Shown here in pieces: positions 54,881 to 62,800 of a stretch of DNA of 64,000 nt (its first letter is position 1; every line of letters starts with the position of its first letter). The stretch covers positions 46,539 to 110,538 of the forward strand of contig CACNLM010000003.1 of assembly GCA_902621305.1 (NCBI GenBank), written 5' to 3'. The notes under the pieces were generated by a model. The model had not been told where the DNA came from and did not search any database. It was given only the letters and a program-made list of their open reading frames with translations. This DNA comes from an uncultured Alphaproteobacteria bacterium. Lineage in GTDB: Bacteria; Pseudomonadota; Alphaproteobacteria; HIMB59; GCA-002718135. Position numbers and translations under genes: made by a program.

Positions 54881-56512
54881 ATGCAAAATGTTTGCCCAGA
54901 GTATTTATATGGATCACCTTTTGAAGCCTTCTTTTGTTCAATAGGAGACTACTCAAAAATATGGTTTTTTGATCTATTCATTCAACAATGGGTTCCCTTT
55001 CTATTATCAGCTGGAATTTTTGGATTATTAATTTTAGCAATCATTTATTATCAACTAAAAGTATCACCACTTTCAAGAGAGTTATCAAATACACAGTTAT
55101 TTTTAAATAGAAAATCTTCAGGCAATAATGCTTATGACAAAAGAAAGTCTTTTTTAGAAAATTACAATGAGATTAATGAATTTTTTGAAAAAACCAAATT
55201 TTTAAAATATGCTTGGAATGAATTTAGTGAAACATTAATTACTCCTCACAAAGATGATACTCAACGAGATATTAGAAATTCAGAACATAGTGAAAAATTT
55301 TTTTACCAAGAGGCATTATTTGATGAAGCTAAAATAAGATCACAGTACGTCAACTTCATCCCAAGTTTTTTTATTAGTTTTGGATTATTACTAACATTCA
55401 TTGGTTTAGTTGCTGCTCTCATGAAAACTGGAGAGGCATTCGGAGTTGAATCCAATACTGATCAAATGATGAATTCACTACGAGACCTTTTAAGTGCTGC
55501 TACATTTAAATTTACAACTTCAATAGCTGGGATCGCTAGTGCATTAGTTTTTTCAACATATAGTAGAATTTTTATTTATTCAGCTCAATCAGTTAAAATA
55601 AATAATATTTGTTCTATTTTTGAAAAATCACTTCGTTTTGAATCTGTAGAAAAATTAACAATTTCATTAATTGAACAAAATAAACAACAAACTACTGTAT
55701 TCGAAGATTTTGGAGAAAATTTTGCAACTGCTTTAGGAGATAAACTTTCACCTATACATAATGAGTTGCAAAATATGGCTGGGCAATTTGGGCAAATGAA
55801 CCAAGATGCTTTAAGTAACATGATTGATACATTTCAAAATAATTTAACAAGTGGTTCACAAGAAATGATGAAAAATTTAGCTGAAAATTTATTAGAAGTA
55901 AGTAATAAAATTGAAGGCGTGTCATCTTCTATGACTAATTCTGGGGAACAATTTAATACTCAGTTATCAAAAGCGACCGATAACTTAATAACTTCAATTG
56001 AAGACATTAATCAGAAAATAAATTCTCAAGGTGAAACGTTTGAAAAAATATCAGAACTTACAAAAAATGCTGCAGATAGTATTGAAAATTCGACGAAATC
56101 TTTTGTTCAAATTTCTGGGCCATTAGAAGAGATTTCCGAGAAAATGCAAACATCTCTTTCCAATATTTCAGAAACTATTGGTAAGTTATCTGAGCTGCAA
56201 GAAGGCATGAATAGCACAGTTGAAGCAATAAACACGGCCACATCTACAATGCAAAATACGTGGAATGATTATCAAAATAGATTTGAAGGAATTGATGAAA
56301 GTTTTACTAAATCAGTTGAAACTTTTGGAAAGTTTATGAATGCAAATCAACAAAATGCGCAGGATTTTGTAAAAGATATTGAAACACAATTTACGTCTGC
56401 AACTCAAACATTATCATCAGTAATGACACAATTACAAGATACCGTTGATGAAATTGAGTTAAAATTATCAAATGTAAACAAACAAGAAACAGAAGGAAAT
56501 AATCAAAATTAA
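54881..56512 (+). CDS. zorA: ZorA-like protein: MotA/ExbB-type membrane stator subunit with long helical cytoplasmic tail
   Basis: 543 aa. TM1 (WVPFLLSAGIFGLLILAIIYY), a ~110-aa loop, then ExbB/MotA-like TM2-TM3 (SFGLLLTFIGLVAAL ... FTTSIAGIASALVFSTY), then ~300 aa of polar Q/N/S/T/E-rich helical tail. The gene symbol is tentative. Confidence 0.7.
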   Translation: MQNVCPEYLYGSPFEAFFCSIGDYSKIWFFDLFIQQWVPFLLSAGIFGLLILAIIYYQLKVSPLSRELSNTQLFLNRKSSGNNAYDKRKSFLENYNEINEFFEKTKFLKYAWNEFSETLITPHKDDTQRDIRNSEHSEKFFYQEALFDEAKIRSQYVNFIPSFFISFGLLLTFIGLVAALMKTGEAFGVESNTDQMMNSLRDLLSAATFKFTTSIAGIASALVFSTYSRIFIYSAQSVKINNICSIFEKSLRFESVEKLTISLIEQNKQQTTVFEDFGENFATALGDKLSPIHNELQNMAGQFGQMNQDALSNMIDTFQNNLTSGSQEMMKNLAENLLEVSNKIEGVSSSMTNSGEQFNTQLSKATDNLITSIEDINQKINSQGETFEKISELTKNAADSIENSTKSFVQISGPLEEISEKMQTSLSNISETIGKLSELQEGMNSTVEAINTATSTMQNTWNDYQNRFEGIDESFTKSVETFGKFMNANQQNAQDFVKDIETQFTSATQTLSSVMTQLQDTVDEIELKLSNVNKQETEGNNQN

Positions 56513-56515
56513 TAA

Positions 56516-62500: not shown

Positions 62501-62800
62501 AAAGAATATGAAGTTAATAGCACGCCAAAAAGTCATGATGGTGGTGCAGACATAATAGCCAAAAAAAATGGAATTGATTACATAATACAATGCAAACATA
62601 CAGGTAATAGAAAAAATATTTGTGATAATGAAGCTACACAAGATTTAATTAGAGCTAAAAAGAACTATAAAATGGAATCAGCAGGTTTAATATCTGTTAC
62701 AAATGCAAATGGTTATTCTGAAGAAGCAATGACAGATGCGAAAGATCATGCAATAACTCTCATTGATCGAAATAATTTAGTCAATTGGAATCCAAACTAA
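59501..62800 (+). CDS. zorD: ZorD-like SNF2-family helicase fused to a C-terminal Mrr-type restriction-endonuclease domain
   Basis: 1099 aa. SNF2 motifs [11 protein letters not shown] (60989), FDEMQKIK (61358), [10 protein letters not shown], and helicase-C [21 protein letters not shown]. C-terminal FEEWV...[22 protein letters not shown] (from 62534) is an Mrr_cat-like D...QxK core. The ~480-aa N-terminal region is unassigned. Confidence 0.8.
   Translation: [1099 protein letters not shown]

Follow-up and report, generated by a model that had tools for sequence, protein, structure and literature searches.

The window, which is the whole 64,000-nucleotide (nt) stretch of DNA analysed here, carries four consecutive plus-strand open reading frames (ORFs) that, judged from their sequences, are almost certainly a type I Zorya system (zorABCD). 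The gene content and gene order of this system are already known; the novelty lies in the host lineage and in the architecture of ZorB, in which a helical stalk of about 285 residues lies between the transmembrane (TM) helix and the peptidoglycan-binding domain. The locus is very probably a functional type I Zorya that is carried as strain-variable cargo at a hypervariable site of a Pelagibacteraceae (SAR11) genome, and the ZorB stalk variant bears on how Zorya senses infection.

The four ORFs have the order zorA-zorB-zorC-zorD, which is the canonical order of type I Zorya (PMC11946911), with a 3-nt gap between zorA and zorB, an 11-nt overlap between zorB and zorC, and a 4-nt overlap between zorC and zorD (Table 1). 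The first-pass annotation of this DNA had described a coupled four-gene plus-strand operon with a set of motifs, and its coordinates, junctions and every quoted motif were confirmed. It had also called the operon type I ZorABCD, and all four proteins were indeed best matched by PADLOC type I Zorya profiles: ZorA1 (3.8e-72), ZorB1 (7.3e-46), ZorC1 (1.5e-77) and ZorD1 (E=0, 1059 bits). Nine ZorA1 profiles matched ZorA below 1e-10, and the short profile PDLC00595 was covered over its full length (9e-44), while the ZorB1 profile matched ZorB in split stretches. Among the Pfam families that had been expected, EH_Signature was found in ZorC (PF15611, 1.8e-42, 146.6 bits against a cut-off of 27.5), and SNF2-rel_dom (8.2e-48), Helicase_C (6.3e-14) and Mrr_cat (1.9e-18) were found in ZorD, all above their cut-offs, which bears out the EH-signature and SNF2 plus Mrr assignments. 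However, OmpA in ZorB stayed below its threshold (2.8e-4, 21.6 bits against a cut-off of 27.2), and MotA_ExbB gave no match in ZorA at E<=0.01. The annotation had further supposed that the proteins were extremely remote and possibly a poorly described subtype; this was overstated, because ZorD scored 1059 bits and the proteins lie well inside the existing type I profiles.

Comparison with solved structures gave the same picture. ZorD matched E. coli ZorD (8qy7) at 4.5e-92 over aa 310-950, with its DEMQ motif aligned to the DEAQ box; ZorA matched E. coli ZorA (8qyh_A) at 4.9e-6; and ZorB matched the Shewanella type I ZorB (8vvn_B) at 1.2e-14 in two pieces, aa 3-78 and aa 425-521. The AlphaFold2 (AF2) model of ZorB had a mean pLDDT (predicted local distance difference test) of 73.7, mostly 80-95 over aa 330-530, and a Foldseek search with this model returned 8vvn_B as the top match (1.4e-9, TM-score 0.62 on the target). 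Further Foldseek matches were the periplasmic peptidoglycan-binding domains of MotS, MotB and PomB, and together with ZorB the matches ranged from 1e-9 to 1e-6. The SNF2 helicases of the Dpd and DISARM systems were rejected as identities for ZorD: DpdE (4.5e-94) and DrmD (4.5e-20) scored far below ZorD1 (E=0), and the neighbours are ZorA, ZorB and ZorC.

Table 1. Features of the Zorya locus and of the ORF that follows it, in window coordinates
Feature	Coordinates	Strand	Description
zorA	54881..56512	+	543 aa; MotA/ExbB-like stator subunit with three TM helices and a C-terminal helical tail of ~310 aa (aa ~234-543)
zorB	56516..58108	+	530 aa; N-terminal TM helix containing Asp19, then a long helical stalk and an OmpA/MotB-type peptidoglycan-binding domain at the C-terminus
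ZorB TM helix, aa 17-43	56564..56644	+	contains the ion-coupling Asp19 (nt 56570-56572); AF2 helix 17-43
ZorB stalk, aa 44-328	56645..57499	+	all-helical insert, absent from canonical ZorB
ZorB peptidoglycan-binding domain, aa 329-530	57500..58105	+	GHTD435, L447, R451, NRR502-504
zorC	58098..59504	+	468 aa; EH-signature protein, domain aa 92-444
zorD	59501..62800	+	1099 aa; N-terminal domain, SNF2 ATPase aa 474-747, Helicase_C 793-903, Mrr_cat nuclease aa 982-1096
strain-specific ORF	62802..63320	+	172 aa, 1 nt after the zorD stop; SSB (single-strand DNA-binding)-like N-terminus, Lys/Ser-rich tail

The individual proteins were then described by hydropathy and motifs. Hydropathy showed two strongly hydrophobic helices in ZorA, TM1 at aa 37-55 and TM2 at aa 163-181; the third TM helix (about aa 207-232) is amphipathic and was placed by alignment to E. 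coli ZorA. Thus the three TM helices and the tail of about 300 residues that had been claimed for this protein were recovered, two helices by hydropathy, one by alignment, and a tail of about 310 residues whose hydrophobic periodicity is 3.7 residues. The motifs of the ZorA TM pair are SFGLLLTFIGLVAAL at aa 166 and TTSIAGIASALVFS at aa 212. ZorB showed a single hydropathy peak at aa 21-39, and its motifs are SITD with Asp19, GHTDQ at 432, LSVKRA at 447 and NRRLEFRF at 502. Asp19 was invariant in all alignments examined and aligned to the TM region of Shewanella ZorB, and GHTD, LSxxRA and NRR were invariant in the alignment of ZorB relatives. The earlier description of ZorB was therefore right about the Asp before the single TM helix and about the C-terminal OmpA/MotB-like domain, on which Foldseek and the motifs agree, but it overlooked the helical insert of about 285 residues. 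ZorC carries ADWSHDG at aa 389, and its His431 was invariant among ten aligned ZorC proteins. ZorD carries DDMGLGKT at 497, DEMQ at 620, GGAD at 1014 and IQCK at 1029, of which the last two form the Mrr core. The G+C content is 27.2% in the operon and 28.8% in the whole window.

The size of ZorB sets it apart. It has 530 aa, while the ZorB proteins of ten other type I loci have 242-347 aa (ZorA there 575-825 aa), and the PADLOC ZorB profiles are 232-293 positions long. Alignment showed that the extra length is one insert of about 285 residues between the TM helix and the first helix (alpha1) of the peptidoglycan-binding domain; 347 residues separate the two blocks alignable to 8vvn_B in the window ZorB, compared with 59 in the Shewanella protein. 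A search with the peptidoglycan-binding domain alone against 1.84 billion representative proteins gave 711 relatives, and statistics were taken from the best 150 of them. The median length in this set was 267.5 aa (interquartile range 249-301, 95th percentile 371), and the distance from the TM Asp to GHTD was 148 residues in the median, compared with 413 in the window ZorB; the only full-length representative close to the window ZorB was a marine sequence of 537 aa. The absence of a linker and the conserved size within a type, which are features of ZorB in the solved systems, do not hold for the window protein; neither is part of the PADLOC or DefenseFinder definition. A second, smaller insert was also seen in ZorB of the marine clade, about 25 residues (YEPFYLKKSNALNNSEKTWKKLQDKY...) in the peptidoglycan-binding domain, between the conserved Cys378 and Cys412 (window 57650-57751, aa ~379-412).

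The stalk was predicted to be entirely helical. In the AF2 model it consists of two helices, aa 72-194 and aa 204-328, and the stalk of a marine homologue, P0003, was also modelled as all-helical (helices 59-172, 179-232, 235-335 and 337-371). Five residue types (L, K, N, I and E) account for about 71% of the stalk, and only four Pro or Gly occur within the 286 residues of aa 45-330. Analysis of heptad periodicity in the stalk showed no peak at 3.5 residues, only weak ones near 5.7 and 7.1-7.4; since no clear heptad period was seen, the term coiled coil rests on the composition, the scarcity of Pro and Gly, and the AF2 helices. Helix-break positions differ between relatives: the window ZorB has Pro204 near the middle, the marine relative P0002 has its sole Pro at aa 159, and the marine relatives P0003-P0005 have no mid-stalk Pro, with P0003 broken elsewhere by AF2. 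That the break positions are not conserved makes a conserved hairpin with arms of equal length less likely and slightly favours a rod that is extended or jointed.

Long-stalk ZorB proteins were also found elsewhere. Four marine relatives (ZorB of 485, 537, 572 and 572 aa) are built in the same way, with an Asp-bearing TM helix followed by a long helical stalk and then the peptidoglycan-binding domain, and the two that were looked up stood in zorABCD contexts, with a ZorA of 542 aa where complete. The near-identical ZorB relatives P0004 and P0005 differ by an indel of 35 residues, exactly five heptads. An independent long-stalk ZorB, P0141 (L092 2122-3480), has 452 aa and a stalk rich in Ala, Glu, Leu and Arg, and it is encoded in a zorA (678 aa)-zorB-zorC operon of 52% G+C; another ZorB similar to P0141 has 407 aa. 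The presence of a long stalk in a Zorya lineage of 52% G+C indicates that such stalks arose at least twice and are not just an artefact of AT bias. A clear tandem duplication of about 40 residues (LKGQLATLRNNLKVAEVKISQQTAELEIRAERIA / LKSQLEALRNNLTLAEGKIEQQATELDARAERIA) was seen in the P0141 stalk. An inverse relation between the length of ZorA's tail and that of the ZorB stalk was considered and dropped, because the GC-rich long-stalk system has a ZorA of 678 aa.

Selection on the operon was examined by the ratio of nonsynonymous to synonymous substitution (dN/dS, Nei-Gojobori) between the window and a related contig, L089, whose Zorya proteins are about 90% identical. The ratio was 0.08 for the zorA tail, 0.07 for zorC, 0.10 for zorD and 0.055 for the zorB TM segment, and protein identity in the same parts was 90.5%, 91%, 89% and 93%, respectively. 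In contrast, the ZorB stalk had a ratio of 0.36, an identity of 54% and an indel of 45 residues, and the peptidoglycan-binding domain had a ratio of 0.21 and an identity of 72%. The stalk evolves 3-5 times faster than the remainder of the system, and the two raised values make the whole periplasmic half of ZorB the fast-evolving part. Reading frames were intact in every copy seen, with the coupling and catalytic residues retained. These sequence data show purifying selection on all four genes and argue for a working system. Between the window and a Tara contig (L001 3599-5191), the ZorB proteins were identical and the synonymous divergence (dS) of zorB was 0.02, compared with 0.09-0.13 for the flanking zorA, zorC and zorD; the low value in zorB suggests a recent recombination patch covering this gene.

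What the stalk might do can be considered from the model systems, in which ZorA5B2 is an ion-driven rotary motor with pre-dimerised ZorB wall-binding domains (PMC11946911; PMC11890865). The E. coli wall is about 90 Å away, normally beyond the reach of ZorB, and envelope deformation caused by phage is proposed to let ZorB bind the wall, after which ions flow, the ZorA tail rotates, and ZorC and ZorD are brought in and degrade the DNA of the phage (PMC11946911; PMC11890865). E. coli ZorB has no linker between its TM helix and its peptidoglycan-binding domain, and the resulting short reach is what the sensing model depends on (PMC11946911). By analogy, five ZorA subunits of the window system would surround two ZorB TM helices, making a 5:2 motor that is driven by ions and coupled through Asp19. 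A phage-perturbed envelope would allow the ZorB peptidoglycan-binding domains to anchor to the wall, and ion flow would then rotate ZorA together with its cytoplasmic helical tail. This rotation would recruit or activate ZorC (the EH-signature DNA binder) and ZorD (the SNF2 ATPase-nuclease with an added Mrr-type domain), leading to destruction of the phage DNA. The cytoplasmic half should act as in the model systems. In the periplasm the geometry must be changed, as the helix that normally links the TM segment to the wall-binding domain has been lengthened by about 285 residues into a stalk.

We tentatively read this stalk as a ruler, a reading whose chance we put slightly below even. It would determine how far the domain extends and hold it just out of contact with a wall that is expected to be far off in the enlarged SAR11 periplasm; the sensor, which in the model cannot reach the wall before the envelope deforms, would thereby be set to a much larger gap between inner membrane and wall. 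The SAR11 periplasm is reported to take up to 70% of the cell volume, as Zhao 2017 is cited in PMC8168909. The approximately 257 helical residues of the stalk would span about 385 Å as a straight helix and about 185 Å when folded once. As a rough estimate, a SAR11 rod with a radius of 60-100 nm and 30-50% cytoplasm has a periplasm of 18-45 nm, which is comparable with the stalk. It is more doubtful that the stalk is an adaptive ruler, retuning the wall-distance sensor to the wide SAR11 periplasm, with the periplasmic half of ZorB diversifying since it meets the envelope damage caused by phages.

Several observations weigh against a working Zorya whose stalk measures the distance to the wall. 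ZorC gave no sequence-level match to any solved structure in the PDB sequence search, and its Asp390 occupies the Glu position of the consensus 'AEWSH', as an Asp likewise does in a Shinella locus (L011). The E. coli ZorB wall contacts Tyr151 and Asn152 correspond to Asp443 and Glu444 in the window protein, and with two of the four E. coli wall-contact positions differing, wall binding is not assured, whichever reading of the stalk is taken; the contacts Leu155 and Arg159 are kept as Leu447 and Arg451, the GHTD Asp is kept as well, and Glu444 is kept across the marine clade (the correspondence was read off the N-x-x-L-S-x-x-R pattern). A straight stalk of about 385 Å would exceed ordinary periplasm widths, and the helix breaks in the AF2 monomers are not conserved between the window ZorB and P0003. 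The stalk is under less constraint than any other part of the system, with frequent indels, internal duplications and the dN/dS of 0.36, and it could be a tolerated low-complexity expansion. In addition, a comparable stalk occurs in the 52% GC lineage of L092, so the feature is not specific to SAR11.

An alternative that we consider rather unlikely is that the stalk is neutral and the locus is an ordinary type I Zorya. The stalk would then have grown by tandem duplication in an AT-rich genome as a coiled-coil expansion of low complexity, and would be tolerated because the wall-binding domain either functions whatever the tether length or folds back to where it normally sits. The substitution ratio of the stalk is the highest in the operon, and its 54% identity and 45-residue indel were found between relatives that are otherwise about 90% identical, as would be expected of such an expansion. 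The same can be said of the internal repeats in the ZorB proteins of the window, P0003, P0005 and P0141, of the narrow composition, and of the range of ZorB lengths from 485 to 572 aa without obvious compensation in ZorA (542-543 aa). However, a ratio of 0.36 is still under neutrality, and no frameshift or stop was present in any of the five diverged versions. Pro and Gly are still excluded, with none across about 280-310 residues in P0003-P0005, and the indel between P0004 and P0005 corresponds to a whole number of heptads. The independent stalk in a GC-rich Zorya shows that AT bias alone is insufficient, and published deletions of tails and domains show that the geometry of ZorAB matters (PMC11946911).

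Another alternative, which appears improbable, is that the stalk folds back as a helical hairpin, so that the two chains of the ZorB dimer make up a four-helix bundle. As in canonical ZorB, the peptidoglycan-binding domain would then stay at the membrane, and the bundle of about 180 Å would extend across the periplasm as a feeler that senses disturbance of the wall or outer membrane directly. The two long helices of the AF2 model are nearly equal and are parted by a low-confidence loop at Pro204, as a hairpin would require, and a straight stalk would probably outrun the usual periplasm widths. However, the arms would be unequal in P0002 (roughly 78 and 124 residues on either side of Pro159), P0003-P0005 have neither Pro nor Gly in mid-stalk, AF2 breaks the P0003 stalk elsewhere, and monomer AF2 models tend to fold back long helices artificially. 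Finally, the possibility that the A and B proteins are an ordinary stator or energiser of the flagellar MotAB, Tol-Pal or ExbBD kind beside an SNF2/Mrr restriction-like gene has been effectively refuted. ZorAB is homologous to MotAB, and P0008, a distant ZorB match, is named MotB by its source, but protein A is matched by nine ZorA1 profiles and, at E<=0.01, by no MotA_ExbB model. Translational coupling links the pair to zorD and a gene with EH_Signature, two related genomes lack the block in the 10 kb that follow tesA, unlike housekeeping Tol or Ton genes, and no flagellar genes were seen in the annotated parts of the window.

The host and the genomic site were also investigated. The UreC protein of the window has a 97% identical homologue labelled 'Pelagibacteraceae bacterium' by its source, as well as hundreds of marine matches of at least 92%, and TesA has an 82% identical homologue from a Pelagibacteraceae metagenome-assembled genome. 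Because these homologues (82-97% identical) bear Pelagibacteraceae source names, the host is probably a SAR11-type bacterium; the guess in the first-pass annotation of a marine, streamlined host agrees with these homologues. The operon lies downstream of ybbAP-tesA: tesA ends at 51702 and is followed by small genes without family matches and then by Zorya. Within 10 kb after tesA, one relative (L087) carries small ORFs and a SIR2-domain gene adjoining a phage-type integrase (12033-13978), and another (L088) carries sulfotransferases, an amino-acid kinase and then purH (3537-11455). Neither has Zorya there, which agrees with the suggestion that the locus would prove strain-variable in a synteny comparison. 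The resemblance of protein A to ZorA, the EH_Signature domain of protein C and the absence of the block from relatives at this site are the opposite of what the annotation had named as grounds against its call. The site after tesA looks like an integration or replacement hotspot. Contigs with close TesA homologues were mostly shorter than 5 kb; metagenome assemblies are expected to break at hypervariable regions.

The identical ZorB protein was found on eight marine metagenome contigs (Tara Oceans and the Joint Genome Institute, JGI). Six fetched metagenome contigs aligned to window 54532-62802 with about 98% nucleotide identity, and the same four-gene block was present at about 90% protein identity on the further contig L089. 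This recurrence shows that the arrangement is not due to chance. Across 185,579 species-representative genomes, no ZorD exceeded 43% identity to that of the window. Beyond the operon, about 1.7 kb past the right end of the window, metagenome contig L001 (11603-13963) encodes a DUF4268 protein of the PADLOC candidate defence family PDC-S11 (5.5e-117), and a Cas4-like PD-(D/E)XK protein (2.3e-5) also follows the operon in metagenome contigs. With these two genes after the operon, Zorya appears to lie in a multi-system defence island. The other cargo in the relatives, the differing flanks and the neighbouring candidate defence gene together indicate that the operon is strain-variable cargo of a defence-type island.

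The flanks of the operon differed between contigs. To the left, contigs share window 54532-54867, which holds a minus-strand ORF of 99 or 111 aa, and then carry unrelated small ORFs further left (regions compared: window 54286-54531 and upstream, L001 1-1614 and L002 134-1313). Only 13 bp separate the zorA ATG from the longest version of this divergent ORF. To the right, the first 70 or so residues of the 172-aa ORF matched PHROG single-strand DNA-binding families (2.2e-8 and 1.7e-6) and, weakly, DUF736 (0.095), and the remainder is rich in Lys, Ser and Asn. The segment of about 511 bp that holds this ORF was missing from all six fetched metagenome contigs, whose alignments skip from 62802 to 63314, and both of its junctions end in AAnTAAT. 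A tblastn search of phage genomes gave no match for the ORF. Its membership in the Zorya system is doubtful; the ORF may be what remains of a mobile element, or else serve as an accessory or anti-defence gene.

Scans for regulatory elements over 54200-64000 found 59 promoter-like sites against 64 expected, none of them singled out, and no terminator. The only matches from an Rfam scan of the window were to a tRNA and to an RNA antisense to ureC, neither bearing on Zorya; the latter was a match to 5_ureB_sRNA at 11584-11873 on the minus strand (101 bits), antisense to the urease alpha gene. It may only mirror coding-sequence conservation, because the RNA on which the family is defined runs antisense across a urease coding region that is conserved. 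Elsewhere the window encodes a urea ATP-binding cassette (ABC) transporter with urease (urtA, urtB, an adjacent ATPase gene and the urease genes at 3912-14838), choline dehydrogenase, peptide ABC transporters, a phosphonate carbon-phosphorus (C-P) lyase operon (22433-36826, with phnF, phnH, phnI and phnM identified), major facilitator superfamily (MFS) transporters and ybbAP-tesA.

Among ocean bacteria SAR11 is the most abundant, and how it survives under phage pressure has long been debated. A full-text literature search turned up no report of Zorya in SAR11; two papers mention both names, but SAR11 defence is the subject of neither. A Zorya system that is intact, under selection, located at a strain-variable site and recurrent in Tara Oceans metagenomes gives concrete evidence that SAR11 has accessory immunity. 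No paper on length variants of ZorB surfaced in a full-text search on ZorB, coiled-coil and periplasmic terms, the matches of which were not read closely for this point. Infection sensing by ZorAB is still only a model, and both structural papers propose that the domain is out of reach of the wall until the envelope deforms (PMC11946911; PMC11890865). A natural stalk of about 285 residues, together with several length variants, makes this model directly testable. If the stalk is an adaptive ruler, its variants (ZorB of 452-572 aa) offer a ready test of sensing, and SAR11 hypervariable regions carry envelope-sensing immunity. If the stalk is neutral, all that is left is a routine annotation that places a known defence system in a new host.

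Among the known systems, type I Zorya of E. coli NCTC9026 (EcZorI; PDB 8qyd, 8qyh and 8qy7; Hu et al., Nature 2024, PMC11946911) has the same zorABCD order. Its ZorA likewise has three TM helices and a helical tail, its ZorB combines a TM Asp with a C-terminal peptidoglycan-binding domain that contains GHTD and Arg, its ZorC has the EH signature, and its SNF2 core in ZorD can be aligned to that of the window protein, with a DExQ box that reads DEAQ in E. coli and DEMQ here. However, E. coli ZorB has 246 aa with the domain fused directly to the TM helix, whereas about 285 residues are inserted in the window ZorB. The ZorA tail is also longer in E. coli (about 507 aa, aa 223-729) than in the window (about 310 aa). 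E. coli ZorD (1080 aa) stops after the helicase, while the window ZorD adds Mrr_cat (aa 982-1096), a domain that some PADLOC ZorD1 profiles cover. ZorC had no detectable pairwise sequence match to E. coli ZorC.

Type I ZorAB of Shewanella sp. ANA-3 (PDB 8vvn; Mariano et al., Nat Commun 2025, PMC11890865) provides the closest solved ZorB by both sequence and fold, and both the region of the TM and proximal helix and the peptidoglycan-binding domain can be aligned to it, but the Shewanella chain has 282 aa compared with 530 aa in the window. The sizes of Zorya components are well conserved within each family (PMC11890865), and a ZorB of 530 aa is therefore an exception to that statement. Flagellar MotB and PomB share the TM Asp and the OmpA-like peptidoglycan-binding domain, and their spacer between the TM helix and the domain governs wall engagement (PMC11946911). 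The MotB spacer is a plug helix with a flexible linker of tens of residues, whereas the window ZorB, which lies outside any flagellar context and has ZorC and ZorD as partners, has a helical rod of about 285 residues. The same architecture of TM Asp, stalk and wall-binding domain is shared by the marine relatives P0002 (L089), P0003 (L091), P0004 and P0005 and by the GC-rich P0141 (L092), which differ from the window ZorB in the length (ZorB 452-572 aa) and the sequence of the stalk.

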